From positions 86,214-150,213 of the forward strand of contig JAKLFP010000006.1 in NCBI GenBank assembly GCA_022711115.1: a stretch of 64,000 nt of DNA. The letters run 5' to 3'. Below the pieces are notes generated by a model. It made no database searches, was not told the origin of the DNA, and saw nothing but the letters and a program-made list of their open reading frames with translations. This DNA is from Candidatus Omnitrophota bacterium (GTDB taxonomy: Bacteria; Omnitrophota; Omnitrophia; Omnitrophales; Aquincolibacteriaceae). The position numbers and the translations under genes are program-made. This document shows positions 28,901 through 61,188 of the stretch, in pieces; the first letter of the stretch is position 1, and the number at the start of each line of letters is the position of its first letter.

Positions 28901-31900
28901 CCTCGAAAAATAATTTGCGCTTCGTAATAGGTGTAATCTTCGAGAGTGGCTATCCGGTCTTCCAATCCGAGAAGTTCCGTCATAAAACGTATATAAAGAA
29001 AACGGTCATGCGCGTCGTCTGCAAAAGTACGCCCGCCGATCAACAGGCGAGACATGGTACGCCGCAAAACTTCAACTGCCGGCTGGTTTTTAAGACGTTC
29101 CCGAAGCCCTTCAAAATCATTTTTATAGCGTCCATGATTTTGATCCCTTCCATCTCTATACGCTTTCCAAAAAAGAAAAAGTTGATCGAAAGGCCTTGCA
29201 AAAGGGCCGGAAAATTCCACTTTAAGCCCGGCTTGAGTCACCGCTTCTTCCACTCTTCGTTTGAGCGTTTCTTCGGCTTCTACGGCTGTCATGATAGGTT
29301 TTTTTATCTTTTGGGCGGCTTCGTCTGCGGCTTTGGCAGCGGTGTCTTTCAATCTTTCTTCATATTTATCCGGACCTTTATAAGGTACCTGGCGTCTGAC
29401 ATTCGATGAAATAGGATCGCCAAGAAGCAGATCGCGGGCTTTCCCATAATTTTGTTCAAGTGTCGCCCAGTTTTCTGGTCGGTTTTCTTGAATCGCTGTC
29501 GAAAAAAGTTCCTGCATTTCTCTTAAATGTCCCGCCAGCTGCGTGTCATCTAAATGGCGTTCCGTTTGATAATCTCTAAACGTGCTCCCAAGCCAGTCGC
29601 TCGCGCCTTTGAAACCGCGTTTTTCGCGGAGCCAGATCAGAAGCTGGGCTGCATCGGCCGCGCTGACCCATTCATTTTGAATCTTGAATTGTTCGCGCAG
29701 ATCCGAATGTTTTTCAAGCTCCTGGAAAAATTGCCGGTCGTTGGCTTCTGAAGGAAGTCCGTTTTCCGGTTTTGGGATCTGAAGTTCTTGCTTAAAACGT
29801 TCGATCAAAAGCCTTCTTGCCGGAGACTGCCAACGCGGCAGAAAAACACCGTTCGTACTTCGAATACCTTTAGAAGGATCATAAAAACCTTTGACGCGAT
29901 GCCATGCGGCGCGAAAAATATTTTTTAGAAGCGCCGGTAAGTGTTCCACAAGATTGACGCCGGAAATGAGATGAAAAACCTCTGCCGTAAACCCGGCAAT
30001 ATCGATCATACCGTCATGAACCAGCGTGGAGCGCAACCATTCGGGGAATCCCAAAAGCTCGTAGTGACCTTCCCAGGCTTCAAAAAGACCCGGACGAAAA
30101 ACCGTATGGTTCAGTGTCACTCGCTTCGCACTCTTGAGATGCCGCACCGGGAGGCTCACGAACACTTCATGGTCCAGAAGAATGATGTTCTGGGGATTGT
30201 TTTGATTTTCAAGGATTTGGATCAGACGTTCGCTCGCGGCGCTGAAGAAAGCCATATCAATTTCGCGATTACCCGTATCGTCGTAAACCTCCAAAAAGGC
30301 CGGCGCTTCTTCTTGTCCATTCGGACCTTTGACATAGGCGTCCAGATAATACTGCGGTGATTTGTGAAATTGAAAATAAGTTTTGTAAACCCGGAAAGAG
30401 ACCGTTCTGGGAACTCCTCTCACGGGAAGTGTGACCTCCAAGGCAATATCGGTAGGATCTAAAAACTTTTTGATGATCTGACCGAGAAGTTTCCGCTGAT
30501 GATGATCATAACCTTTGCCGGGCTTATTTTTGATGAAGTTCCAAAGCGGATGAATCCCGGTTACATTCATCCCGAGCGCAGCCCAGGCTTCAAAAAGGTC
30601 CGGCATCAAAGCTCCAAGGCCGCCTGTCAAAGTTGTTTGGGAAGCTTCCCCTGCAGTCCAAGCGCTCATCTCCGCAGCGATTTTTTCCAGAACAGGCATC
30701 GGAAGACCGCATTCGAATTGCCGGCTATAAATATGCTGTTTATGAACTCGGGGCGTATTAACTTCGACCCACTTTGGCACCTTTTGCTCCCGCAATTCTG
30801 AACGTGGAAAAGACGGGGTTATCCCGAGTGTTTTGAAATCAATATTGATCAGGCGGGGATGGCTTAAAAAATCCAACGCGACATCCCAGGATTTCAGCGC
30901 AAGACCCGCTGCGACAAGATTTAAAACGGTCCTGCGGTACAACTCAAAATCCGGACGGTCGACAAGCTCATAAGCTTCCATGCCCTCATAGAAAGATCCA
31001 TGGCCTGCAGCGGCAAGCTTTTGGATCCCTGCCAGGAAATGGGTCTTGGTGTTTTCTTCGAAAATCTTTTTTCTGACCCAAACGATTGTTTTCCCTCTCA
31101 CACCGTAATACCAGCTTGTCTTCATATCCACTTCGACAAATTCATCTGGCTCCGACGGCCGCTCATAGGTCACAAGCCACTGAAGCATACCGGCTAAATA
31201 GTTCGGAGTAATAACGGAATGGTCTATCAAGCTTCGCACCTCGGATCGCCGGTAACGAATGGTTACTTTGGAATTGTTGATCACGGTGTTTTCCCAACCG
31301 CGGGAAGAAGCAGTGACCGATTGGGTTCCCCAGCTTACGGAAACAAACCGGTATCTATTCATATCTGAAATGCCCGCAGCCCTGATTCCGTCAGCACCTT
31401 CAAAATGATTGTCAATGAATTGCCTCACGGTCAGTCCGCGCGGCACATTGATAAAATTGATTGCGATCAGATTTGAAGCGGGCGCAGAAGGTTTCGGCAT
31501 CTCTTGTTGTTTAGGCGCCGGCGGAAGTATTCCCATAATCTTCGCCGCCATTGCTTCCCCGGCAGCTTTCGCTTTTGTTTCATCCGCCACAGTTAAAGGT
31601 ATTTCTTTTTGAACTGGTTCGACGGGTGTTGTTTTTACCGTTGGCACAGACGGTGTATTCCGGGAAGATAGCGCGGCAGCTTCTTCGGTTTTGGACAAAG
31701 CTTGTATGACAAAATGGAGCTCATTCGTCCACGGGTGATCAGGTCGACGGTCTAAAATAGTAAGCGCTTGGATCCGATGGAGAGGATAATGCTCAGGCTG
31801 GTCTCGAAGCATACGGCGCACCGCTTCAGCAATACGTTCCGGAGCTTCGCCCATGCCCACATGATGCACAAGCTTGCGATTGCTATAGCTTGTATCCGTG

Positions 31901-34900
31901 GACGTTTCAAAACTAATCTCATCAATCCTCATCTTCACCTGGAACATAAGCCGATACACAGCATCCCGGACCTCAGAAGGCGTACGTGCAAACACCTCCA
32001 TAGACTTGGATTCTGCTAATGTTTCCGAAACCTTTTTTGGGCTAATTTTCTCTGAAACAGTCATCACGTCGATCTTCTGCCCGATTTGAAACTCGGGTTT
32101 AGGCGCGACAGTCGGTTGAAGTGTGAGCGTGATCTCGCCTTTGTTGTTCTCGGCAGTCAATAAGAACCATCCGTATATTTCTTGGTGGGATGGCACATTC
32201 GCGAAAAAGTCGTTGCCCGTATCGTTCCAAAATGCTGAGGATTGAATCCGGCGACCTGCGCTTTGATAAATAACTTCAATGGCGTGGTCCCGCGCGATAT
32301 TCCACCGATCACCGATTTGGCGCAATGCGTCGGAAATCCGGTCAAATGTCAGCGGTTCAGAGGTCCACGTGTCTTTAGACGGAGCATAAGAAACGCTTAC
32401 AATGCGGTTCGCGTTATAACCGGTTGAACCGGCTTTCTCTTGGATATAAAGCGTCCCGCCTATCAATGCCTCGAATTTTCCTTCGTAAACAGTTCCATCC
32501 TGCATGGAAAGCTTCAACATCGTCCCCAAAGCGACATTTCCCGCTTGAGCATCCGTTTTAAATTGCGCGAACGGGACTTTGGCAAGCAACGTTTCCGCTA
32601 TGTTTTTGGCCATCCCTTCCGGCTTTGGTTGCTCTTCACCGCGCACTTCCGAGCGTTTGGAATCCACATAGGTTAGTGAGGGAGAGAGACGATCATCGGC
32701 AAAATGCAGCCAAAAAATTTCGCCTTTCTGAATAAGAATATCTCGCCATTCCATCGGACGGCTATAAGCATAACGCTGGCCTTTGCTAGAAACCTCTGCA
32801 CCGACCAGGGCCTTATCACTGAGCGAACGAAGACGGATAAGAGATTCCATCAGATCCGCGAGAGACGATTTCTTTAACGCCTTGACTTTTATGAGTGCTT
32901 CCGAGCCATGGATTATCTGGACAGCCTGCTGCGAAGCGCTAAGCCCGGAACCCGGACTCACTAGGCTTCTCAATTCCGAGCGGGACTCGGCGATGAGGAA
33001 GGAATCGCCGGCTCCGGCAATTTCGAAAGTTTTCAAATCCGGATTCAGAAAAGAGCGCCGGAACGCTTCGCCCAAGGACATCCGTCCCGCACTATCCAAT
33101 TCAATAAAAATGGCCCTGCGATGAATTTGATCCATATAGTCTCTTGCCGCAACCGGATCTTGAGGCGTTGTTTGCTCAACCATTTGCTGCCATGCTGTCG
33201 AAGGATAAACCCGCAAGGCTTTGCCTGCCTTTTCCGATACAGCGATAAGTTGAGTCTCCTCTCCTAACATGGTTCGGAAAGGTGCGGGAAGTTGGATCCT
33301 ATTTTTATCATCCACCTTGAAGGTATAAGAGCTGGTGAAGATCACCGGCGCCCGCACTTCAGAGCGGGAAATCACGGGTAAGAGACCTTTATATTTAAGA
33401 TCAGGTCTTTGTATGCCAAGAGAAAAATTTGAACTGCCATCCGCGTACCGGATCACCCATGGTTTTTCGGTTTTGCTTTGGGCTTCCAGCAGTTCAGAAA
33501 GCGATGGTAACTTCACCGGTTGGCCGTTCTTGAACCATTCCAAAACTCGGTTTTGCTGCGACGTATAGCCCAATTTTTTTGCTAGGGTCTCGCGAAGCGC
33601 TTGGGAATCCATGAACTTCATGGGCCAAGGAGCTTTAAGATCAGGCGGGAACCTTGGATTGGTGCGAATCCCGTATACTTGTTTAATTTCACCATCCTGG
33701 GTGATAAAAATTGCCTGGAGAGGGAAACGGCCGTCAAAGCTGCTTCGTAATTGGTCACCGTCAAAAAACCTGGTTTTAAACCGGCCAAAGTGAACGGAAA
33801 TGTTTTTGGCGCCGGTCCGATAAACGAGTTCATGGTCAGGTCCAAGATAAAATCCTTCGAATTCCGGGCTTCTCGGGTCCTGCGTTCCGTTGAACGCGAC
33901 AACTCCCTGCTCAACCGGCTGCTGATACTTCTGCGCCAAATCGAACAGGATTTGTTCTCCTTCAAAATAAGTGACATACGGATCAAGCGCCTGCGCGAGG
34001 TCCCTGTCCCCGAAAAGATTGCCGACGATTTTGACCGTAACGGGTTGCACTGCCTTTGCCCCTTCCGCTTGAGCAAGGCTGATGATCTCGATGCTGTTCG
34101 GATCCTTCGCAGGTTTAAAATCCACGCCCTCGATCAAATAAAGTTTGTCGCGCCAGGCCTGAAGCTGGCTAATCAATTCATTGATAGTGATCTGCGGTCC
34201 GGTTAATGGTTTCAACGTAATCCTCGATTGCCCGATCTGTATCCACCTTGTCGGGCTCGTCACGGACCGGCTGTAAAGAACTTGGGTTTCCGGTAACGCA
34301 ATGGCCGGTTCGGGTTTCTGTTCAACGGGTTCTGTTTTCTTGACTTCTTCTACAGGGGCTTGCGCTGTCTGAACCGGGGTCTTGGGAGAAGCAAATCCCT
34401 GCCGTTGCTGAGCCGCTTTCTCACGGAGTTCTTGCTCTTTCTGAGCTACTTTTGACACCCTGACATCCCACTGCCCGCTACGGCGGGCGTCGTCTTTATT
34501 CATTCGCACTTCAGAGCGGGAGGTAAGCTCGACAATTTGGACGGTAAGTCTTTTCATTTTCTCTTCAGCGGAAGTATTGAGTAATCGATAGGCCGTAAAC
34601 GGTCCCGCAAGCATTTCCGTCACTTCTTGAAAGCCATATTGCCTGACCTTCGGAATAGCGTAATTGAATTCCACAACCGTGACAGTTTGAGAAGCGCTAT
34701 CGACTTTAGCGATCACTCTTTTCCATGAAATGGAGCCGAGATTGGAATTGTCGATGCGCCAATCCTTAGAGATCAACACGCTATTTTCTAAAGTATCGAA
34801 GTCCCCTGCCGAGGTTTGAGAAGTGATCCTGCCGCTTGCCGTATTATTTTCAAGGAGCTTCAGAAGATCGCCATACGGGATGAATCTAACTTCCCCTTCC

Positions 34901-37900
34901 GCTTGCGAAATAACAAGATAAGATTTGTATGCGTCGTGTTCTTGTTCTGCGACAAAAAAGCTAAGATCGCCTGTGGTTTCATCTTTTTGGAAGTCAAGGA
35001 TCCGTTTCCCGGCAAGGAATGTTTCGATTTCTTTTTGAAGTTCCGCGGCAGAACGCCCATTCGCGGCCTCAAATTCAACCTGCCGTTCACCTTGCTTCAC
35101 GATTAATTTTTGTCCGGATTGTTCAATGATAATTGCCGGCGGCGCTGAGTAAGGCCCACCCCACGGAATGCGTCCTTTTCGGGACAGGCTGCGTACTTCC
35201 GAGCGCAACGCAGGTTTTTCCTGCGGTAATTTTCCCAAAACCGCTCTGGCCGCATCATGAACAAGGCTTTTTCCTTTTTCATCAAGACGATTTCCTGAAA
35301 CAAGCTGCTGGACAACATTGGTCACACGGGCATTTACAAAATCGATGAGATCCTGGACCGTCAAACCTGAAAATTCATAATAGGCCGGTTTGCTTTTGGC
35401 CTGCAAGGCGGCTTCATCCGTTTTTGTGATTTCGATGCCGAATCTTTCTTCGAGAGACTGCATCAGACTCATTTCATCCAGGGAATCCATGCCGAGATCT
35501 TCTACTAACCGATCCGTCAGACGAATTTCTTCCTCGATCGCGGGAGGTAAAACCTCTTTTAAAATATCGATGACCTCTTGATCAATATTTTCACTCACCG
35601 TTCCCCGCATTTCCGAGCGACTGGCCTTTCTTCTTTCATTGATGGCGTGCTGAAAGGCATTCGAAAGTATTTTGTAGGGATTTTGCGAATAAAAATAATT
35701 TTGCCACAACCAATGCGCCAGACCTGAAATCCCGATAAAAATCATGCTAAACGCAACCACGCGGGGGATCTGTTCCTCCGCCGGCAAGAAGAATGTTGCC
35801 GTCCCGATAAGAGGAAATATAATCCCCACCAGGACCTTCATAAAAGCACTGCTCCGTCGGAATTGGAGTTCAGCAAGAAAAGAGGTGGGGTTACCGTTTT
35901 CCGCTTTTTTGTAATTGTCGGCATATCGGTTTTTCATTTTTTCCCACAATTGTTCTAAGCGGTCTAAGGTTATCCGGTTTTTACTATTTGATCGGAGATA
36001 TGCTCTGACCGATTCATCAAGAGAGCGCAATTCAGACCTTGCTTCCGTAAAGAGAACAGGATTGATTAAGTCATGGCTTAAATTAAGGGCATCATATTTC
36101 AAAGCTTTTTTTTGCTGTAAAAGTTGAATGCTTTTTGAAGGAATAGTTCGAAACTCAATACGATCAAACTCTGGGACTGTTTCTGTCCTGACGTTTTTGG
36201 TCGGTTTGATGCCCATGGAAGATATCCAGCCTTCAAAGGTTGTTTCCCCTGCTTCTTCCTGAAAGAAGTAAAAACGAAGTTTGAACGGCCCTTGAACAAT
36301 GTCCTCGGGTCCCAATTCGCGGGACCGGATGGTCCCGGCAGCCCCCGCTAACCATGAAAACCACACAAGATGGGAAAATTGTGTCCTTGGCAAATGTTCG
36401 TGGTGGGAATTATAAAGTTTATCGGGAAGTGCGAGATAGTGCTGTACCGCCTTACGGTTCTTAAACAACGTGATCATAAGACCTAAGGATCCTTGCTCAT
36501 CACCTTCAAAGTCATGGGCATCCAACCGAAGCTCCCGCTCCCATCCGATGCCTCCATTTCTCATATTCCAAACAAGCGGTTGGTGGACCAGATCCGACAG
36601 TTTGAATAAAGGTCCCTGAACAGCCCGTACTTCGGAACGAGTTTCCAGCTTCCTTGGCATAAAGAAATTTCCCGCATCGTCCTTCGAATCCCCCATAGAA
36701 AGCTGCTCGATGCCTTTAAAAACTTCGGCAAAAAACTTTTTTGCTTCGGCCTGTCTTATAGATTTTGAAGCGATAGAAAATTCCACTGTGATATCACGGC
36801 CATAGCTATTCAGCATCGCCTGCGTGTGATAGTTCAAGCCTAAAAGGGTCATCTCGTCCCACGACAAAAGATTAAATCTCTGTCCGTCGCTGCGAATAAT
36901 GGCTGCTTGAAAACTCTTGTCTTGAACAAGATATTTTCTTTCGAGAAGATGTTTGGTTCTGGCGGTAGGCGCCGTGTGAAGCCCGAGAGCGTTTCCGATG
37001 CTGTATTTCTTTGCCGCGATCCAGCGATCTCCTATTTTTGTCAGCTTAAAATCAGTTTTTCTTAATTCGGAGCGCTGATCGTTCATGTAATTCGGCTTGC
37101 GGGTCACCGGAAAAGCAGGCTCGGCGGTTTTTCGGGCATATGCAAGCAGGTATTTCTGCATTTTTTCGTATTTTGTACCGACGTTGATCGGGCCTTCGAT
37201 CCCACGGATGGGCTCCGTCAGTGTGAATCCCGCGGCCCGAAGAAGTGTTTCGAAATAACTCGGCGTGACAGTAAAGACCCAGCCATTGAGAAGTCGATCG
37301 CCGCTTAATTTTTGATTTTTAGGCTTGAAGATATTTCCCCCCGGGGCCCATCGGACAAAAAGAGGCGCGTCTTTTTCGAGAAGGTCCCTGAGCGAAAGTA
37401 ATGCGTTTAGCTGTTCTTCGGGCGAAAAATAAAGGAGCACATCGCTGATAAAAATCCCTCCGAAAGTTTTCCCGTTGAAATCAGCCGTTCGGAAATCGGC
37501 GGTCATGAACCTGTCTTTAGACATGTCCCCGAAAGAGGGATCTTCGAGAGCGGCTTTGATAAGCGACGGCGAGATGTCCGTTCCCCAAAGGTCGGTAAAT
37601 CCCTGTTCCTTAAATTTCTTGAGCGCCCTTCCGATGCCCATACCCACATCAAGAATGCTTTTATCCTTGCCGGCCATCAACGCCAGGAACTGATCGATCG
37701 TTTCTTGATGCGGAGAAACGTTCCAATCGCGGAGCTTATGGCGTTCAAAATCAAGGGAGAATTCATCATCCGTCCAGTACCGGACATTGCTGATCGCCGG
37801 GTCGGGGGGTGATTTTCTGAAGGTTTCTACCGCCGCCTGGAATTCCGGAGAAGTTTCCATCAGCGTTGCCAAAACCCGGGCAAATTCCGGATGATGTCTT

Positions 37901-40900
37901 ATCTCGGAACGTTTTGGGGAAGCTGGGACTGCGGAAGATACAGGCAGCAACGGTATGAGCGGCTCATAATAATGTGGCGCCGGATTGTAGTAAGAAGAAA
38001 CGTCTTCTGTTTCTTGTGCGCGTAATTCATTGCGCGGTGGAGCAATGTAGATACCGTCAAAAACAAGTTTGCCAACCAGATTGGTCCCGGCGTATTCTCT
38101 TTTTACAATAAAATCTATCTGGGCAATGCCACCATCTAAATACAGTATTGGCACCTCTACTATTTGATTTGCATATACCCTGGGAATGTCTCTCCCATCA
38201 CTTCCATGCAGTTGTATTCTAAACTGGCTGGGCACATTAATTGTTTCAGCGCCAACATGAAGTCTCAGTATAGTATTAGTCGGCCAACTTGCCAGTGATA
38301 CGTAATTAATTTTCGCCCATGCCCCTTCCCAGTTGCCTTGCCTAAAATCAAAATTAATTGTCCATTTACCCCCTGAGATACTTTCAGTCACTCCGCTCCA
38401 AAGAATGCCATGACTGGTAACTAACGGGATCAGGGATATGTTTCCTGAGGCACTAAAAAATTCCTTCTCGAGCTCTGTGGAATTCAAAGGGCGGGTAAAG
38501 GATGCGTCTCCGTTTTTGCCGGGAACATTCGTAAGGACTGCGGAGGATCCCGTAAAATTAGCCGGATAAGTTCGTATGTCATAAGCGTTGTAATTGGTGG
38601 GGCCGGTAATATTCATCGTGACTTGATTTGTCGCAGGTCCTTTTCTGATCGACATCAGTATATTCGTCATCTGTGCCAGCGCGCTTTGCGCCTGAAGTCC
38701 GAGCACGAGCAGGCCGGTTATGACAAGTTTTGAGATCGCGCTCATCCGTACTTCAGAGCGGCCGGCGTTATTGTTGTCGTTCAGTATCTCCAGTAGTTTT
38801 AGAATGTTTGGCTGAAGAATATCTTCTGTTGAAACATACTTCCGAAGAATGGTTTCGACTTGAGCAACCCGTAAGGTCCTTTGAGCCGCTAAATCCCGTA
38901 TATCTCCGTAAAGAACACTTGCAACGCCCCCCAACCCAAAAGCAATAAGGAATGCTACTGCGCCAAATCCGAAAAGACCGATGCTCCCTATTCCTAAAGC
39001 CAACGCGAAAAGCTTATGACGTTTTAATTGGGATTCTGTTTTAAAGGAAAGCTCATTCATCCAAAACGTATATAAAACGGCTATCTGGGCAAAATCAACC
39101 TGCGCCTCCTCACCCTCCATTTGAGCCCATTTGTATATACTTTCCGCGATCTTATTCCATTCTTCTTCTTGATAAATCGTAAGCCGTTGTTTTACCCATT
39201 GAAGATCGACTTTCTCAATTGGTTTACGGGAAGCCGCCATAGATAGAATGTCATCAATAGCGCGCAAGGAATAAGGATGCGAAATTCTTCCTTTTTTGAT
39301 TGATTCGTTTAAAAAATTGATCCCCTTAAAAACTTCGGTTCTTCTTTCATCTATGAGAGGGGAAACTTCACCTGCAGGGAATGCCTCTCCACGCACCTCG
39401 GAACGTTTTTGAGAAACAGGAACTGTGGCAGGCATGAGTGATAGCCGATGACCGCTCCGGTTATAAATCACTCCATTGAGTGTTAGTGTTTGATCGTCAT
39501 TAAAATGGACGCTCTCAAGAGGAGCCTCTAAGGTTGCCCATTGGATTCCTAAATTGGGATAAGGATTGAACATGTCTATCAGATGGATCCCCGCCAAGTA
39601 ATTAGTCATACCTCCGGCGCGGACCCATTCTCCCCAAACTACCACCTTGCCATCCGGCGAAACATCCCAAACATTAGGAACCAATCCGCGATCTTCCGCT
39701 GAATCATGTAACTTAAACGTTCTCCAGGTATGCGAGCGCGGGTTTCGAAGATCAACCATTTGAAGCGTTTGAATGCCAGAGGGTAAACCTGGACCTACTT
39801 GCACCCATGTTCTAAGCTCAAAATCAGGATTGGAAGTAGCCCGGATAAAAGGTGTTGGCGAATATTGAATCAGTGGAAAAACCTGATCTGTTTTGACACG
39901 ATAAAAAGCCTCAGCCCAGTAAGGCGTCATATTCACTACGGTTTGGGTTGCTCCCACAATGCCGGCCTGTGCCGTGAACCAAGTCCCGGAAGCAAGATTG
40001 GTCGAGATCTGAACCCAGTAAGTACGGTTGGTGGAACTTTTAAAACCCATGCCCATGACTGAACCATTTTTTACAAAAGAAATTATTTCGACCAGATTCG
40101 TCATCTGTGCCAGCGCGCTTTGAGCCTGAAGTCCGAGCACAAGAAATCCAAGCAAGGCAATCTTGGAAATCGTCTTGGCGCGCATTTCGGAACGTGTCTT
40201 TGAATGATAAGTTCCGGGCAAATGATAAGTACCGGGTAATAGCTTTATATAAGTTTGCTGCCCCGGAGAAATAAAAGCCAGTTTCTCATCAAGTTTCGCC
40301 GTCACATCCACTATGTTTTCTTGCAAATTCCATGATGAGATAGCCTTAACAGTAAACAAAGGCCCTTCAGATTTCCAGGAGGGCGCACTCATCATCACAA
40401 ATCCCATCGCACTAAACGCTTCTATCGCATCCTTTTCGAATTCAGCCCTGGAATACGAACGGGCCGTCCGCGCCTCGGAACGCCGGATTCCGTTGCGGTC
40501 ATACGTCCTGTTGCCATTCAGAGTGATGGTTCCGTTTTCATTGAAGCGGATTGATTGCAACGGATCCGGAAGATCAAGAAAGATTCTTTGCTTGGTAGCT
40601 GGTTTATAAAAAACAGCACGATTGCCTAAGATTCCATAGACAACAATGACTCCATCCTGGGAAACATCCCATGGGAAAGCTGAAATACGCGCATAGTAAG
40701 CGTCATCAGAAATGATTGTCCATGTTCGATTACGCAAATTCATCATGTCAAAAAAGATATCCCATGATGTTCCCCCTGTCGTCCGCGGATCAATTCGAAA
40801 AGCGAAATCAGGGTTGGATGGGGCTCGGGTCCAACTAACAATAGATCCGGGTGATGAAGGCACAGCATACAAAGAACCGGCTTGTATTTTAAGAAACCCT

Positions 40901-43900
40901 TTCCCGGTAAAAGATCCGAACAACTGAACAGATGTTTGTGGGGTGCTAATGAAACCCGCCCAGGCAAAATTCCATGTGGGATTTGCCGTAAGATTCGTTG
41001 CAGTTAAAACGCGATGTGCGATATTGGTCCCGAAATTCGTTTCGCTGAGAAATCGTAGCCAAAGATTTGTCGGCGAGTAAGCAAACGAAGTGATCACCGG
41101 CGGGTTTATCTGCGGGATTGCGGGATACCCGATAGCACGGAAAAATCTCTGGCTTGGATTTAGAGCCAATCGATTTAAATAGAGGGCGACAGAATCCACA
41201 TAAGATTCTCGGCCGTAACCGCTGCCCATTACGTCAACTGACGTAACCGTATCGCCTTCCGCAAGTCCGAGCTCCTGAACCGTAAAAGTTCGGGTCACCC
41301 ACTGATTCTGCGGAACTAAAACAAAATTGGTATTGCTGGCTGAATTTTCATCATGCCTGTAATTAAAGTACCTGGCTACCTGATAGGCCGAGCCGTTGTT
41401 TCTCAAGCCATTCAATCGGAAATAAACTGGCGCTTCCCTCCCCGAACCGTCTCCAGTAAGTGGGGCTGAAACAATTTTGAAAGTTATATCAAATCGGCTG
41501 AAATTACTCAGCGTAATCGGTGTGTTATATTCCTGCATCATAAAACGGCCTTCACCGTAATCGGGAGGACGTGACAGGCTAACAACTCCTGTGCGTCCAT
41601 CGTAAGAAGAAAAATATCTGGGAACAGTTTCCGCATTAGTCGAATATGGGACCCAACTGTCTGGCAGGCTATTGGTAGATGATCTTTGAAGAAAATCCCC
41701 ATTGACGACCCCATCAACCACATCCGACGGAACCGTAAAGGTATAAGAAGCTGAACCATTCGTTGCCGCAACATTGGCAAAATGAAGAAAATTTGTGGCT
41801 GTCCCGTTGAAAAGCCGCTCAGCGCTTTGGATCTCATAGGTTTTGTTGGTCGCCGGCCCCGTGATGCCCAGCGTGAATTGATTGGTCGCAGGCCCTTTTC
41901 TGATCGACATCAATATGTTCTGCGCCCATCCTCCGACAGAGGACAGCATCAGGCCAATAAGAGCGGTAATCGCTAATTTGCCCCGCACTTCGGAGCGAGG
42001 TGCGACCGGAGCTGCGGAAGAAGTAGGCGGAGATTCTATTAGCGGCTCATAATAATGCGGCGTCGGGTTGTAGTAAGAAGAAACGTCTTCCGTTCCTTGT
42101 GCGCGCAATTCGTTGCGGCGTGGTGCGACATAGATGCCATCAAACACAATCCTCCCGACCATGTTGGTTCCCGCGTCTCTTTTGTCCAGAACAAAAGCAA
42201 GCTCGTTATGCGCAGTTGGCTTAAGCGGCAACTCTATAATCTGTCCCGCTTGTGGATTATGAACCCCTAGAATTTGCGTATTGGGCTTAAATTCGATTTT
42301 GATATAGGTCGGCAGATTTGTCGTACCGGCGCCAAAATGCAGCCTCAAAACCCTGTCGGCGGGAATGTACATTATATCTCCATACTTCAATCTCCCCCAC
42401 GCGCCGACTAAGCTGCTAATGTTAAAATCAAAGTCGATTGTCCATTTTTTGTCCGCTGAAATTCTCTCGACCACACCTGTCCAAATGATGCCATGGTAAT
42501 AAAATAACGGAATCCACGAGACATTCCCTACGGCACTAAAAAATTCGTGGTCTAATTGGCTCGAATTTAAAGGATGGACATAGGAGGCAATTCCACCCGT
42601 TGCGCGAATATTTGTTAAAACCATGGGTGAGCCTACGAAATTAGGGGGATAAGTTCGCAGATCATAAGCATTGTAACTTTTAGGACCAGTAATGTTCATC
42701 GTGACTTGATTTGTCGCAGGTCCTTTTCTGATCGACATCAAGATATTCGTCGCCTGCGCTAGCGCGCTTTGAACTTGAAGCCCGAGCGCAAGCAGTCCGG
42801 CCATGGCGAGTTTCGAAACCACTCCAACCCGCACTTCGAAGCGGGCGAAAGAAGTGATGAGTTGGCGGACTTCCCTGTGAACGGCAGGAGCCCCTAAAAG
42901 AGCTGAGAGGTTAAAGCGCGGAGAATTGACTTTTTTAAGATTGATATTGTCAAAACGCATCGGAAAGATTGGATCACCGTTCTCAAGAGTCGCTTCTCCA
43001 CCGGCCTTCAAGACCAGAAACGCTCCCTGAACAATATCCCAGATTGACGGAGTGGGTTTCATGTAAAAGATCTCAGGGTCTCCTTGGTTATAAACACCGC
43101 TTGAAATGACGCGCCCGATATTGATAAACCCGGATTCTCCTTTATTGAAGATCACTGAACGAGCCGCCGCCTGAACGGCCGCATAGTAAGGCGCCGGAGA
43201 AACTCCGGCTTTATCGGATTGATAAATAGCAACCCTGGCATTTGCAAGGGTACCGGCTGCAGGATCGATCCAAACGGGTTTTCCGTTCAATAAAACTCCG
43301 GGCCGATCCCGGGTGGCGGTCCACATCGAGCTGCCTGTTCCGTCAACATCGTATTCGGGAGCAAAAATAACTGAAAGGACCGGCATGCCGTCTTCAAGCA
43401 GAAGAAGCGCGGTATCATAGCCTTTCTTTTTTGTCTCATAAGCTTTAGTGCCATCAATAGGGTCCACGATCCAGACATGCTTCGCTTTCTTGGCATTCTC
43501 GATCAGCTGCCTGTTCGCTTCCAGATCGGCATCGTCCTGAGAAAAATTTTCTTCACCGAGGACCACAGAATCAGGCACGATCCTGGGAAGTTCAAGATTG
43601 AAGAGATTCTGAATGTCTCGATCAGCCTTTGTTTGCCCTGAGTTGTCACTTTTGACGACGCGATCCAGATCGGAAGACTGAAGGGCTTTTCGCATAATTT
43701 CACCGGCTTGTCTGGCTAGGCTTTCAACTTCACTCAGCGCTTTTTGAACTTCGCCCGGTGTTAAATCCCGCATTTCGGAACGAGATTTTGGTTTTCCGAG
43801 ACGGACGAAAAATTTATGATCCATGTGACCAATGGCGGTTGTCCGTGCTACCGGACGATCTCGATAAGTCTCATCGATCTTGTGCACCCGCAAACCTTTG

Positions 43901-46900
43901 GGAGCTTCCACGCTCAAGTTTGCCGTTTGAAGATCCGCCACTTGCCGCAAAGAAATCTTAACAACACCTTTTCCTGTCTCGATTACAAGCGGTTGGGACA
44001 ACGAAACCTCAAAAATTTGTCCGGCCAAAATCGCCACACCGCCTTTTGTGATCATCGAACCGTCCTTGATTAAAGGAATGGAAACCATCATCCTTTGCTG
44101 TTGTGAAGACAATGTATCGATCTGGACCCGGAAGATCCCGGGGCCGAAAACAAGTTTATGCCCGCGGGAAACGCGCATTGTCTCTGTGGTAAGGATAGTG
44201 GGCTTTTCCGGATTTCGCATTTCCGAACGATGCTTTTTTTCAATTCCTATTTCAGCATACAAAGGCTGCCCTGTGTCCTGGACTTTATGAAGATGAACAA
44301 TAATATCACCGACGGAAATGCTTTCTCCGGCAATCCGTCTGCCCTCTTGGATTACTTGGCCCTCCTTTAAAATTTGCAAAAAAGCGGCAGGCAGACTATC
44401 CCAACCATAACGACCGGGATAAGCTTCAACATCTACGGTCAAAGATAATCCATGGTCTAATTCGATAGTTTGCTGATCTTCAACACGTTTTAAGGATAGT
44501 TCTATTTCATTCGACACTTCAAGTTTTTGTCTTTGGGGACGGTTTTTATAAAGTTCTTTTATTCCTATCACGATCATCCCTAAGATCGCAGCCGGTGCAA
44601 CAATCCTGGCCAGAACAACCAGGGAATTGACCCAATCGATATCCATCCGCAATTCCGAGCGACGAAAATGAGGCGCTTCGTCCATTTCCGGGGCCAAAAG
44701 ATCTTGAGTTTGCTCCACCGCGGCCCTGACAACCGACATTTCATCAAGATAGCGGCGATAAGCGCGCGTGGTCACGGGATCGGCCGGCGATTCCTCGGAC
44801 AAAGATTCGATTTTCTTTTCCAGACCCTGAAGCCAGCTCGCCCATGCCGCAGAAGCCGCGTAGAGCCATCCCAGAGTTCTTACAAGATTTTCGACGTTTT
44901 CCGGTTTTGCGTTTTGACGGTCCGACAGAAGCCGTTCGGCCGCAGGATTGAATTTACGAACCAACGGATCCCGGATCTGGCTAAGCATGCTCGGTTGGTC
45001 CAGCCGGTTATCCTGGAGATGCCTTCCGATCTCTGTCTTGATCCTCACAGGGTCCGTGGAAGGATTCCCGTTGTGCGGCGCGAGCGCAAATAAAGCGTTG
45101 GAAACTTCTCGGAGCGCGGACAAAGCGTCGGCGTGAACCTGTTCCGGTAACAATTTATTTTGATAAATCTCTTCCAGACTCAACAGCCTGTCCATAAGAG
45201 ACGCGGTATTTGAACCGATAAAATCAAGCCCTTCCTCTCCGGCTACCGCCTCTTGTCCTTCTTTTTCAAGAAAACGCTGCGCTTCCCGTCTGCTCTGAAA
45301 GATCAAGGCCGTTTCATTTTCAATCCGCAACTCCGAGTGAGGCGTTTGGGAAGCCGTGTCCCCGCCCGTAAGCGAGAACAACCGCCCGCGCAACACCTCG
45401 AGCCGGCTCGATAAAACCTTCCGGCTACGTTCCAAATTTATCCGTTCTTGTAAAGAGGTTGCTTGGCGAAACTTTACAGCAAAAGATTTTGAGCTGGATT
45501 CCAAATTGGCGATCCTCAAACGAATCTCTTGTTCGTCAACTGGAATCCCCGGATCCGGATCTTCGGCACGCGCCTCCGACCGGGAGATCTTAGTCATGTC
45601 CGGAATATTCCCGAGCAGCTCTCCGACAGCACGGGCTATGCGAACCCGGGAATTGTTGGGATCATCACCGAAATTCCCGGCATTGCTCTGCACTATTCCG
45701 ATCAAGTCAGAGACAACTTCCGCTTGTTTACGGACAGCCTCGGGAAATCCTTCCGTGGAAATCACGTCGAACAGCCCGCCTTTATTTTCCGTAATAGCCA
45801 GGAAAAGTTCCTTCAGCTTTTCACGATCCCCTTTGAAATTTTCCTTGATGCCGGTCATGTCGGGATTAACGCTCCGGACCAAAAGCCTCAAAAGGATCTC
45901 GGCCTTGATTTCAGAAGTCAATGTCCGGTTGCTCATAATATCGTTCAGGACTTTTGCCCGCCGCTCCGCCTCAGAAAAACCCGTCATGGATTCAGGCAAT
46001 GATTCTCCGAGATTCAGAGCCTTGGATTTTTGTTCCTGCGCGTGAAACTCATAGGCCGAGGCCACGATCAGATCCAACCCACGCTGTGCCCGCCAAGCCA
46101 GTTTCCGCGTCGCCAATTCACTGCTGGCACGAAGAACATCCGGATCGCCCTGCCGGCGCGGACCGTAATCCACCACTAATTTGCCGCGCTCTGCCGCGGG
46201 AAGCACTTTCCTGAAACTTTCAACGATCTGATTATTGGAGGTTGGGGTTCCTGTCCCTAAGGTAAAGACTTCGCCTACTTTTTTATTCTCTGTCTTGGCT
46301 TGATAAGACAGTGACAAAGATTTCATAATCGCGTGACCAATGTCCAGAACATGGATATAATCCCGGATATTGGTGCCATCGGGCGTCTGATAATCTTTCC
46401 CAAAGATCTGGAACGGAACCTTTTCTTTTCCGTAAAGGAAATATTTGATGAGCCTCGGGATGAGGTGCGTCTCCGGACCGATATGCCCTTCCCCGACCCA
46501 CTCTCCGATCTCCTCCCAGTAAAACGCTCCTGCCAGATTGAAAAAACGCAGCGCCGCGAAATTAACGCCCTGCGCTTGATAGGCCTGCATCAGGCGTTCC
46601 ATCAGATATTTGGTCTCTCCGTAAGGGTTCATCGGTTTTGCCGGGATCTTTTCATCAAGCAATCCGTATTTATTGAAATTCTTTCCTTCAAAAACACCAG
46701 CGCTCGAGGCGAACGCCAGGGGGATCCCCAGTTCCTTCGCGACTTCTTCCACATCCAGCGTACCAACCACATTATTGTCAAAGTACGTCGCCGGAAAATT
46801 TCCGGAGACCCCAGCGGCAATGTAAGCCGCCAAATGAACAATGCTGTCCGCGTGATGTTCCATCGCGACCTGCTTCAAAAGATCGCGGCTTGCGATATTT

Positions 46901-49900
46901 CCTTCCACCACTGAAACTCTTCCAGGGTAGGCCGCCTGGACCTTCCGCAGATAGGCCTTCCGCTTGGGTGTGAGCATGTTGTCAAAAAGGACGACCCTGG
47001 ACCCGTTGGAAAGCGCTTCATACATGACCCCTGAGGCTACATAACCAAAACCTCCCGTGATCAAGACGGTCTTTCCTTCATGGATTTTAGGATCCACATT
47101 CGGAGCCACCGGGCTTTCGATCATGGATTTCTGCCAATTTAAAAAGTAGAGACGCTCGTCATCTTTAGGAAGGATCTCAAGTTCCCAGTTCTCTTTGATC
47201 AAAATTCCGCCGAGCTCATAAGATTTCTTGGAAGCCAGAAAGGCCGCGATCTTTTCAGGGATCCCTTTTTCCCGAAGTTTGCGTCCCAATTCTTCAGAAG
47301 ACATGTAAAAAGCTTCCTGGGCCGCGATCTCGACAGCGATATGATCGTCTTGCGTCACCTCCACGCCTCCGATGCTGCCAAGACTGGCCTGAAGACGTTT
47401 TTTCCAGTAATGAGACTGCGCCAGATACGAAGTAGCGACCGTTTCCACCACGGCTACGGCATCGGGCTTTTTGATCGGTTCGAAAGTATCTTCGCGCGTC
47501 AGCCCGACCAGAGGAGATTCCGGTCTGCGGGGCCTGTCATCGCTCGCACGTTCTAATTTTTTGACAGTTCTTGTATTCCCCTCGAAATCCACCTGCGGTT
47601 TGGTGTCAAGCCGCCACGGCGTTCGGCTGGACGCTTTGAGACTTTTTCTCCACAACACGCGAAAACTCGGGTCCCCCCACAGCACTGTGTCCTTAATGGC
47701 GTCCGTGGCGTTCCCGTAGCCGATATGGCGCCACTGCCCGTCGGAGGTTTTGATCTGGTTCCCAAGCCGGTCATCGCGATTATTTTTCTTCACAACACCC
47801 AATGCGATATGGGCTCGGTCATCCTGATTGCCGGGATTCCATGTCATTTGCCCGTAGCCGATCAATCGCTCATCCGCGATGGGGTTCAGCTGATTGTCCA
47901 CATTAAGGTACTGGACCACTTCAACGCCGAAGGAATCGAGAAAAGCGTTCACATCCTCCCGGAGAAGAACATCATCAAACGTATCCCCATGACCGGTTCC
48001 CCCTGTCGCGATCTCGCCGTTCTTGTTCAGAAAAGGCATTCCTGTTTTCGCGTCAAAAAGCGGCATCACGCCCTGTTGGGCGATAAAGATCCGGTCTTTC
48101 ATCCCGAACCACTGATTTTCCTCAAAGAACTGTATCGTTTTTTCATGGGTGATATCGCTTGTCATGATGATGACGGGAAAAGACGCGTCGTGACCGTAAT
48201 ATTTTGCTGCGGCCTGGATCTTCTTGATGATCCCGGCATAAAGCGGGAGCTGGCTCAAGGGTGTTCCGGGCAAAAATCCCTTGGGGTCAGGGCTCTTAAA
48301 CTCAGACCCCGAACCTCCGGCCGCCAGGACAAGCGCAAATCTTGATTTCCCGGGCATCGCCGGATCCGCCCGCAAAACTTTTTCCCGGGCCAGACGCTTT
48401 GCGGCGGCATCCTCCGCTGCTCCCGGTTCATGAACAGGAACGGTGAACGTTTCCGGAACTTCCGGCTTCGGCACTCCCGGCATCACAATCGTGTCCCGGA
48501 GTCGCTTGGCCTCTCTCCACAGAATTGTTTTAATCTGTCCGAGTATTTTTTTCTGCTGCTTTTCGCTTAAGGAATCCCACGGCGCCAGCAGGTGCTCCCA
48601 GCCGACTTCCTTGAGGCTTTTCATGGCCCAGGATGGGATTTCCGCGGCAACGCGTACTTCGGAACGTTTCTGCGAACCGCTTGCCGGAACAATCCCGCTA
48701 AGAATATCTTTTTCCCCCGCCGTCAGAACGGCATACGCTTGCGCGTGTTGTTCCGCAATGTCTCGCAAAACTTCTTCAGCGTAGTCTTCATCATCAACTT
48801 CCGGATCAAGACTTTGCATGACTTCTTTAAGAACGCTGGCGAATACTCTCGTGTTGAATTTCCCGTCGGCAAAAGTCTTCGGCAAAAGTTTCCCTTCCGC
48901 CAATTCCTCGGGAGAAAGGTCAAGTTTGGAGATCGCCTTTGCCGCGGCCTCTTCCATAACATGTAGTTTCAGGTCTTTCAGTGTCGGCACATCACGCAGC
49001 GCCCTGAAAATGGCCGGAAAACTGTAGCTGTTGTTCAAGGTGCTTCCCTGCGGGTATCCAAAAGCGCCTGTTGCGATAAAACGGATGTTCGGCATTTTTT
49101 TGAGTTCTGCCGGGTCCGCTTCGGGAGTCGGGTTCGAGCCCATAAAAGCACTGGCCTGGTCCTTCATGCCAGAAAAGATCGATTCCTTGCCCCACAAAAA
49201 CCCAGGCTCGGATAATCCTATAAAAGCATCCGCCCCTTGCAGTCCTTCCGCCAAACGCCCCTGATCGATCAAAGAAAGGACTATTTGGTTAATCTCGGGC
49301 ATAAGATCGCCGTATTTTTCGCTGAGAAATCCCGCGATGTTCTCCGGCAAACGGCCTTGTTTCTGCAGGGCCTCCATCGCGGCCAATCTTTCTGCCGCGG
49401 CATGGGCAACATGCTTTTTATCTCCTCCCTGCTCGACTTCGGCTAAAGCCAGTTCATGGGCCTTCGCAACCGAAAACTCCAGGCTTCCTTTAAATCCCTG
49501 AATGTTCAAAGCCGCCAGGTCATTTTTATGCTCTTCAAAGATTCCTTTTCGGCCCGAATAAAGAGGGCCCTTGGTGTCGTATACGATAATATTGCCACCC
49601 CCTGTTTTATCCATACCGAAACCGAGACGTTTCAGGAGAAGTGCTGTCGCGGTGGCAGAGGCCCCGGCGCCGGCGATCACCACTTTCATTTTAGAAATAT
49701 CACGGTTGGTTTCTTTCGCGGCCCGTAGAAGAGCTCCCGCAAAAACCATCGCGGTCCCGTGCTGATCGTCATGAATGGTCGTGATCCCTGTTTCGTTCAG
49801 TTCTCTTTCCAGCGGAAAACAGACCGGCGACCCGATATCCTCCAGCATCACCACAACCTCAAGTCCTTCCTCCTCGCGAACCTTGGTGACATAAGCCTGG

Positions 49901-61080: not shown

Positions 61081-61188
61081 GAAATAGGTTGTCTTTCCTT
61101 ATTTCCGATCTGGATCTTTAGGTATGAGAAAACTCGCTGAAAGCGTAACATATTTTTTTATAATTTCAAGTTCTTGAAAAAGGATTTA

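Follow-up and report, generated by a model that had tools for sequence, protein, structure and literature searches.

How a single bacterial gene can hold, within one uninterrupted reading frame, metabolic enzymes, regulatory proteins and segments that begin like secretory precursors is the question raised by a stretch of 64,000 nucleotides from Candidatus Omnitrophota bacterium (assembly GCA_022711115.1, contig JAKLFP010000006.1, positions 86,214–150,213), hereafter referred to as the window. On its minus strand, positions 25993–61080 represent one stop-free open reading frame (ORF) of approximately 35 kb encoding 11,695 amino acids (aa), which is divided by a recurrent pentapeptide into about 35 junction-bounded modules. 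The original prediction, deduced from the DNA letters alone, described secreted-protein modules carrying their own signal peptide immediately after such a junction and interpreted this arrangement as indicative of a polyprotein. Based on the results compiled here, the 35-kb ORF probably encodes a true polyprotein that is cut at the junction pentapeptide, its modules then being sorted separately.

Giant genes of Omnitrophota have been described before; their cleavage by C39 or S8 domains was suggested as possible, the lack of known cleavage points was noted, and the placement of glycolytic domains partly outside the cell was flagged as a problem (West-Roberts et al. 2023, bioRxiv 10.1101/2023.11.21.568195). 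Furthermore, giant ORFs were called poorly understood (Seymour et al. 2023, PMC10066038). The question of whether they function as single proteins or are cleaved has been raised in published work, in the searched part of which no cleavage sites are given. In a 2026 preprint (10.64898/2026.06.07.730766), internal signal-peptide calls were discarded as chunking artefacts, and cleavage and motifs are not mentioned.

A Conserved Pentapeptide Divides the Large ORF into Protein-Sized Modules

Within the large ORF, pentapeptides of the types RSE[VMLIA]R and RFEVR were observed 34 times, compared with 0.07 occurrences expected from composition. RFEVR represents the single degenerate form of the junction (positions 42829–42843, minus strand, preceding module 17), and the variants RAEVR and RNELR also occur in this ORF. 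Junction codons vary synonymously at every position, with all six Arg codons being used and third positions varying freely, and the DNA flanking the junctions is unrelated from one junction to the next. Because of this synonymous variation and the unconserved flanks, selection is concluded to act on the junction peptide. None of the junctions lies inside a Pfam envelope (P = 0.0016), and the median distance between them is 261 aa, which is a typical protein size.

The same pattern was found in other genomes, for which architecture counts refer to 80 fetched loci (designated by L-numbers) and counts of motifs, Cys residues and hydrophobic stretches refer to 83 related ORFs comprising 206 thousand residues. 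In these ORFs, R[SA]ExR was detected 377 times, compared with approximately 11.5 expected occurrences. S, P, A and T are over-represented among the ten residues that precede the motif in the related ORFs, as they are in exposed linkers. Directly after the motif, E, A, G, T or S is found in most cases and P hardly ever.

Position 4 of the motif accepts V, M, L, I or A, often encoded by ATG, GTG or TTG and also by GTA, GTT, GCG and ATA; across the window and loci L009–L088, NTG codons are favoured at this position. Shine-Dalgarno-like sequences were not enriched upstream of the junctions (4/34 and 6/34 versus a background of 22.5%) and were present at 8 of 15 real gene starts, indicating that modules are not separately initiated. 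Internal translation initiation at the junctions was ruled out by this rate together with the occurrence of GTA, GTT, GCG and ATA at position 4. The Met of RSEMR, previously read as a vestigial start, is one of the residues that the motif allows at this position. A Met directly after the motif does open the modules at 44646 (MDIDW...) and 34503 (MNKDD...), as had been stated and as translation confirmed; as a vestigial start it does not generalize, such a Met showing no enrichment phylum-wide (6 of 377 cases).

Further candidate explanations for the junction were also rejected. A repeated DNA element or RNA motif was ruled out by the varying codons, the unrelated flanks and the absence of Rfam and tRNA matches within the window. 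The motif Ser is unlikely to represent a modification site or nucleophile, given that some lineages use RAExR or RPESR. An RSEIR-coding string at 61097–61111 (minus strand, other frame), located in the 5' leader shortly before the ATG of the large ORF, is probably due to chance: about 0.8 such matches are expected in six frames, and four were seen outside the large ORF and the second ORF described below.

An ORF of equal length (11,695 aa) beside an identical 725-aa neighbour is present in four assemblies (ENA ERZ27257456, JGI 3300009838, JGI 3300025706 and NCBI GCA_035390585.1), a comparison that concerns ORF length and neighbour identity, the fetched loci covering the ORF only in part. The window contig is shared with the metagenome-assembled genome GCA_035390585.1 (NCBI). 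Since four independent assemblies agree in ORF length and neighbour, the ORF is regarded as real, and an assembly artefact was ruled out.

Modules Represent Complete and Unrelated Proteins

Module families were recognised by means of Pfam and NCBIfam searches. Where the N-terminus of a family is well defined, the module start falls within a few residues of the native N-terminus. In the acyl-carrier-protein (ACP)-like module 27 (35191–35604; this and all following modules on the minus strand), position 3 of the ACP profile corresponds to module residue 6. Likewise, profile position 2 corresponds to residue 5 in the MraZ-like module 30 (32968–33351), and position 2 of the CysQ model corresponds to residue 11 in module 16 (42829–43767), a member of the inositol-monophosphatase/CysQ family. 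Further enzyme-like modules comprise module 6 (52252–54705), in which a glutamate-dehydrogenase-family protein (Pfam ELFV_dehydrog, 1e-57; NCBIfam score far below the equivalog cut-off) is followed by about 330 aa of unknown function, the malic-enzyme-family module 11 (48652–50379), the S-adenosylmethionine (SAM) methyltransferase module 23 (37060–37896) and the GT5/glucan-phosphorylase-like module 34 (26794–30789; 1,332 aa). HEAT repeats were also recognised by Pfam. One ORF encodes several complete, unrelated proteins, and a conserved short site occurs at every boundary; these are features of a polyprotein in the viral sense.

Module 12 (45568–48651) combines a UDPGP-like domain with a GalE-like epimerase, and no junction separates the two halves. 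In loci L028 and L027, these halves represent separate junction-bounded cassettes, from which it follows that junctions can be lost or gained. The tail module 35 (25996–26793; 266 aa) is of unknown function and ends with ...ARSA before the stop codon; it likewise closes the ORFs of L009, L018, L020 and L029. Its C-terminus is always [A/S]RSA-stop in the window and in these four loci, resembling the first residues of the junction. Searches with the tail module yielded no Pfam or PDB match and two fragment homologues among 5.8e9 protein clusters.

Signal-Peptide-Like N-Termini Directly Follow Junctions

Translation of the minus strand reproduced the strings and positions of the original prediction and identified four signal-peptide-like N-termini placed directly after a junction. 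RFEVR is followed by VGVVSKLAMAGLLALGLQVQSALAQ (42754–42828) at the start of module 17; RSEVR (41983–41997) by GKLAITALIGLMLSSVGGWAQ (41920–41982) at the start of module 18; RSEMR (40180–40194) by AKTISKIALLGFLVLGLQAQSALAQ (40105–40179) at the start of module 20; and RSEVR (38746–38760) by MSAISKLVITGLLVLGLQAQSALAQ (38671–38745) at the start of module 22. Sec signals were called by a simple rule-based check (positive n-region, h-region of 7–15 residues, small residues at -3/-1) and a Kyte-Doolittle scan in place of a trained predictor. By these rules, each of the four N-termini features a positive n-region, an uncharged h-region of 11–17 residues and a small-residue c-region (ALA before Q type), so that modules 17, 18, 20 and 22 as well as the first module of the ORF, termed the head, were assigned Sec (type I) signal peptides. 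Moreover, out of 13 strongly hydrophobic segments in the large ORF, seven are located no more than 40 aa from the start of a module (binomial P = 3e-4).

Module 17 (41983–42828; 282 aa) ends with RSEVR (41983–41997) and is followed by module 18 (40468–41982; 505 aa), which ends with RSEAR (40468–40482). Module 19 (40180–40467; 96 aa) carries no export signal and ends with RSEMR. Module 20 (39391–40179; 263 aa) contains the string WDVSPDG and ends with RSEVR (39391–39405), module 21 (38746–39390; 215 aa) features two internal transmembrane-like segments and ends with RSEVR, and module 22 (37897–38745; 283 aa) ends with RSEIR (37897–37911). Modules 17 and 22 are paralogues sharing 57% identity. 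The N-terminal part of module 18 resembles modules 17 and 22 and its C-terminal part resembles module 20, whose own likeness to modules 17 and 22 is limited to the signal-peptide region. Since this region is the best-conserved stretch of the paralogues 17, 20 and 22, it does not represent a decaying relic. An inner RNELR occurs in module 17 (42103–42117) and in module 22 (38020–38034), followed in both by a near-identical peptide of about 40 aa (AQ.TEDVSSYYNP.PHYYEPLI...) that precedes the RSE[VI]R junction and may represent a small released peptide or a spacer.

The reported richness in NxT/S was borne out, with 1.58 sequons per 100 aa in the four signal-bearing modules compared with 0.41 in the remainder of the ORF (3.9-fold; p = 3e-6), and the PATNQ string is present in addition to WDVSPDG. 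The description of these modules as beta-rich fared less well: the AlphaFold model of module 22 comprises 14 strands, and its mean predicted local distance difference test (pLDDT) value of 42.8 is too low for a fold search. Standalone homologues with these N-termini, which had been suggested as a check, did not appear: no match was obtained among the 5.8e9 protein clusters, and only two weak remote profile matches, both to large secreted repeat proteins (E = 1.5e-6 and 4e-5), among 1.84e9 representative proteins; as neither database returned the 11,695-aa protein as a match to its own module, these negatives do not cover other giant ORFs.

In the 83 related ORFs, the 30 aa that follow a junction show a 2.2-fold enrichment of hydrophobic stretches (Fisher p = 0.0015). 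In the ORF of locus L082 (aa 1299–1334), RSEVR is directly followed by AEEGQRRMWSRRDFVTTTFVAAGFVALTGC, which shows a textbook twin-arginine translocation (Tat) motif and a lipobox. In the L050 ORF (aa 895–919), RSESR is directly followed by EMVNLVVSMAAVGYLALGC, a lipoprotein signal with a lipobox. The Cys residues of these two lipoboxes stand out given the rarity of Cys in such ORFs.

Internal start-transfer sequences are known to function in polytopic proteins, and signal peptidase cuts internal signals in flavivirus-type polyproteins. The premise of the original prediction that signal peptides require a free N-terminus in order to work is therefore too strong, and given such working internal signals, cleavage at a junction does not follow from the mere presence of a signal peptide behind it. 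The argument that either reading implies processing does not hold either, because concatenation of formerly independent genes alone would not imply it. The polyprotein conclusion itself is strongly supported, mostly by evidence of other kinds, namely peptide-level selection, complete cassettes, cassette shuffling and a phylum-wide architecture; it was the reasoning leading to it that was incomplete. In addition, the modules call for differing destinations, MraZ, ACP and NAD(P)/UDP-sugar enzymes standing beside Sec signal peptides in the large ORF and Tat and lipobox signals occurring in related loci, which counts in favour of a polyprotein.

Hydrophobic segments of this kind could also act as transmembrane anchors of an uncleaved giant multi-domain protein threaded through the membrane, with RSExR serving as an inter-domain linker or docking motif. 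Publications treat such ORFs as membrane-anchored giant proteins of the Archaeovorin type, to which the large ORF corresponds in belonging to the same phylum, in its content of HEAT repeats, GT5 glycogen-synthase-like, methyltransferase and UDP-sugar epimerase domains, and in its N-terminal signal and scattered hydrophobic, transmembrane-type segments; its depletion in Cys and the candidate status of a protease are also compatible with an uncleaved chain. It differs from that type in size (11,695 aa versus the focus of West-Roberts et al. on at least 30,000 aa) and in that no C39 or S8 peptidase domain, reported as common near the N-terminus and not universal, was found by Pfam or NCBIfam. Against an uncleaved chain, a flexible linker requires no invariant R-S-E-x-R under phylum-wide purifying selection, and the h-regions as short as 11 residues, AxA c-regions and the lipobox and Tat motifs of related loci are features of signal peptides and not of transmembrane helices. 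If hydrophobic segments of this type spanned the membrane alternately, the paralogous modules 17 and 22 would come to lie on opposite sides of it. A single threaded chain would also place the MraZ-like, ACP-like and nucleotide-sugar enzyme modules partly outside the cell. Furthermore, cassettes begin at N-termini native to their families. Since the motif occurs only at boundaries, the N-termini show signal-peptide features and the topology would separate paralogues, the polyprotein is favoured, and a single threaded giant is considered rather unlikely.

For the polyprotein, the following course of events is proposed. About 35 independent proteins would be translated as one chain, which a site-specific endopeptidase would cut at R-S-E-[V/M/L/I/A]-R, most simply after the last Arg, leaving a native-like N-terminus on each module. 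Enzyme-like and DNA-binding modules would stay cytoplasmic. The head and modules 17, 18, 20 and 22 would each leave the cytoplasm by means of a Sec-type signal peptide of their own, and modules 14, 21 and 26 would insert into the membrane. An Ntn-type (N-terminal Cys) enzyme placed directly after RSExR would have been proof that the chain is cut behind the last Arg; the 83 related ORFs contain none, and a look-alike occurs only in the motif-less locus L007.

Distribution across Omnitrophota and Shuffling of Cassettes

A tblastn search of GTDB species representatives yielded 139 head loci, every named one belonging to Candidatus Omnitrophota/Omnitrophica, often with several loci per genome. In all 80 fetched loci, the head is located at the N-terminus of the ORF, and most ORFs extend past the 10-kb flank. 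The de novo most enriched 5-mer pattern was RSE.R in most of the longer ORFs. Other lineages feature their own most-enriched motifs, namely RPESR (L011), RAExR (L028, L032, L057), LSDSR (L034), AxSLG (L061, L063, L064, L077) and RP.TK (L078), a pattern that co-evolution between a protease and its sites would be expected to produce. Two loci of one genome use a common motif, e.g., L061 and L077, L014 and L050, or L015 and L040.

Homologues of modules 12a, 12b, 19, 23, 30 and 34 were identified at other positions in other loci, each starting 1–14 aa after a junction. For example, the orthologous cassette of module 23 in L018 starts 1 aa after the junction, the homologue of module 19 in L031 starts 2 aa after it, and cassettes of module 30 in L016, L020 and L029 start 3–4 aa after it, while module 34 is found as a junction-bounded cassette at differing positions in 13 loci. 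As judged from these sequence comparisons, cassettes are shuffled between genomes as units.

The exchange of cassettes exactly at junctions would also fit a junction that is mainly a DNA-level scar or stretch of microhomology for in-frame exchange, the peptide being incidental and the chain uncleaved. A nucleotide bias beyond the needs of the peptide points in the same direction: in the window and loci L009–L088, the first Arg of the junction is encoded by CGY in 203/264 cases (77%) versus 41% in the background, and its Ser by TCN in 235/264 cases (89%) versus 68%, with 33/33 in the window alone. This bias could reflect shared descent of the junctions, recombination microhomology or a translational effect. 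The free third positions, the use of all six Arg codons and the unrelated flanking DNA speak against a scar, and 15 nt with about ten fixed bases and no inverted repeat do not constitute a recombinase site. Such a scar would also leave unexplained why it is the peptide and not the DNA that is invariant, and why motifs differing between lineages keep an acidic-x-Arg core. It is accordingly deemed highly improbable.

The Head Family as a Candidate Processing Enzyme

The head module (59188–61080, minus strand; aa 1–631) starts with the signal peptide MGYFKKLKRLLSSIVVITFSITNTISPSSVSYA followed by Q (60979–61080), continues with a putative TIKI/Ere/ChaN/RRSP-like domain and ends with the first junction RSEVR (59188–59202). 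A second polyprotein-type ORF of at least 2,314 aa with one Cys (1–6942, minus strand) starts with MRFVEKSARFSFPIRLVAGIIVF..., runs off the window and contains the junctions RSEIR (5022), RSEVR (3783) and RSELR (1440). The heads of both ORFs are homologous over approximately 630 aa (31% identity, E = 2e-65). Upstream of the large ORF, a divergently transcribed standalone paralogue of the head family (61396–63573, plus strand; 725 aa, 0 Cys; 23% identity, E = 2e-14) is kept at that position in 22 loci; it features head-like DxH...E...GGFH motifs and a signal peptide and has no Pfam match.

In two alignments of the head family, [D/E/N]82-x-H84, E112, R475 and H503 are invariant or nearly so. Order and spacing of these residues correspond to the motif of two His, two Glu and a conserved basic residue of the TIKI/Ere/ChaN/TraB/RRSP superfamily (PMC6254334). 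The H84–E112 spacing of 28 equals that of H85–E113 in Bcr135 and of H3902–E3930 in RRSP, and R475 and H503 are 28 residues apart versus 29 for R4001–H4030 in RRSP; equivalence was judged from order and spacing, with no residue-level superposition. Sequence similarity of the head to known superfamily members was not detected by Pfam, NCBIfam or PDB profile searches, and sequence-profile and Foldseek searches against the PDB gave no significant result. The head carries a helical insertion of approximately 300 aa. Among the 5.8e9 protein clusters, 13 head matches were found, several of them contig fragments continuing into RSExR junctions, in one case followed by a signal peptide.

The putative fold, the motif, the invariable N-terminal position and the standalone paralogue next door make the head family, a putative TIKI/RRSP-like hydrolase, a tentative candidate for the enzyme cutting the junctions. 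Confidence in this role is low because all heads carry Sec-type signal peptides with a cleavable look (rule-based check), so that they should work outside the cytoplasm.

A head at the very front together with a signal peptide could likewise mean that the polyprotein is exported whole and cut outside the cytoplasm (in the periplasm, at the surface or in a prey cell) by the head hydrolase, resembling the delivery of several effectors by MARTX toxins. Most TIKI-family relatives are located outside the cytoplasm, and RRSP belongs to the MARTX effectors. The proposal further rests on the scarcity of Cys as a hint of an extracytoplasmic chain: the large ORF contains 5 Cys in 11,695 aa (0.04%) compared with 0.2–1.9% for most neighbouring ordinary genes, the scarcity extends even to the dehydrogenase and epimerase modules, and the 83 related ORFs contain 0.14% Cys. 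The divergence of the enzyme modules, the predatory lifestyle proposed for Omnitrophota and the reported enrichment of giant-ORF peptides in attached cells (Seymour et al. 2023, PMC10066038) also agree with export as a whole. It is opposed by the Sec, Tat and lipoprotein signals after junctions, which would be useless or misoriented once the preceding chain is outside, and by the DNA-binding MraZ-like module and the cofactor-dependent enzymes, which have no obvious periplasmic role. Moreover, the large ORF differs from MARTX toxins in that Pfam detected neither a cysteine protease domain (CPD; Peptidase_C80) nor RTX/glycine-rich repeats nor a type I secretion system (T1SS) signal, and in these toxins RRSP is cargo and not the processing enzyme. 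Export of the whole chain is thus judged to be an unlikely course.

Several results weigh against the interpretation of the large ORF as a polyprotein cleaved before sorting. The near-absence of Cys fits exported proteins better than cytoplasmic enzymes and hints at an extracytoplasmic life of the whole chain. Enzyme modules score far below the NCBIfam equivalog cut-offs and represent divergent copies, which may not be the housekeeping ones. Neither Pfam nor NCBIfam detected a recognised protease family in the large ORF, and the heads are predicted to be periplasmic, whereas the N-termini of signal-bearing modules would have to be released on the cytoplasmic side. An internal signal sequence can also work when nothing is cut upstream of it, and the head-led giant ORFs L007, L033 and L083 show no recurrent motif. 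Finally, the cleavage itself, its position within the motif, its compartment and its enzyme are deduced from the patterns described above.

Locus L007 (4009–13988; NCBI GCA_900206355.1) encodes a distant standalone head, P0010, of 593 aa, followed after 21 nt by an ORF of at least 3,326 aa lacking a recurrent motif. In this ORF, a GlmS-like CGINATF follows LSDSELAGVVGC, a string similar to a double-glycine leader; an Ntn-type Cys at this site would need a free N-terminus. At the module boundaries of the large ORF, double-glycine leaders (LSxxELxxIxGG-type, C39 processing) are absent, the L007 string being the single look-alike. The genes flanking the large ORF are ordinary bacterial ones encoding an MqnA-family protein, a split transketolase, a gamma-glutamyltranspeptidase, an M24 peptidase and an ABC transporter.

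Comparison with Known Polyproteins

In viral polyproteins, e.g., those of picorna-, poty- and flaviviruses, one ORF gives rise to many mature proteins, and a short conserved site is located at the boundaries. In the C-prM region of flaviviruses, a site of the viral protease lies immediately upstream of an internal signal sequence, which is then cut by signal peptidase. The large ORF shares with these systems the single ORF, one short site per boundary, a mixture of cytoplasmic, membrane and exported products and the order of site followed by signal peptide, cleavage being inferred in the present case. It differs from them in its location on a cellular chromosome, in its approximately 35 unrelated metabolic, regulatory and surface modules and in the shuffling of modules between genomes; moreover, no chymotrypsin-like or papain-like protease was detected in it.

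Among the products of bacterial chromosomal ORFs, RgpA, Kgp and HagA of Porphyromonas gingivalis yield several functional proteins upon cleavage behind Arg or Lys, the protease responsible being encoded at the N-terminal end of the ORF. Unlike the large ORF, these gingipain-adhesin polyproteins comprise a few related adhesin domains and a C25 cysteine protease, have no defined pentapeptide and are secreted entirely by the type IX secretion system (T9SS). In the literature searched, neither the RSExR junction or RSEVR, the cassette structure and the TIKI-like head nor a natural bacterial polyprotein of such a type was found to be described. Judged against this literature, all three of these features (junction motif, cassette structure and TIKI-like head) are new, while the idea of a possibly cleaved giant ORF was already known.

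Implications for the Biology of Omnitrophota

According to published work, the lack of known cleavage points blocks the structural and functional analysis of giant ORFs. The conserved junction pentapeptide provides exact and testable candidate cut sites for this recognised puzzle, the first concrete ones, at which every such ORF can be divided in silico, giving units of protein size that are suited to annotation and structure prediction. Reading the pentapeptide as a junction explains why 'cytoplasmic' enzymes and 'extracellular' domains occur within one chain, and it predicts specific neo-termini. In a broader sense, Omnitrophota may express large sets of unrelated cytoplasmic, membrane and secreted proteins as chromosomal polyproteins cut by a head-family TIKI-like endopeptidase at lineage-specific pentapeptides, and many 'giant proteins' of up to more than 100,000 aa may be operon-equivalents read as one chain; this generalization is a serious possibility that falls somewhat short of being probable. 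If cleavage is confirmed, a cellular organism would for the first time be known to use polyproteins on a large scale, a mode of expression so far known only from viruses. Confirmation would furthermore provide a new pair of site-specific protease and site of possible biotechnological use, and the shuffling of cassettes at protein boundaries would constitute a mode of genome evolution.

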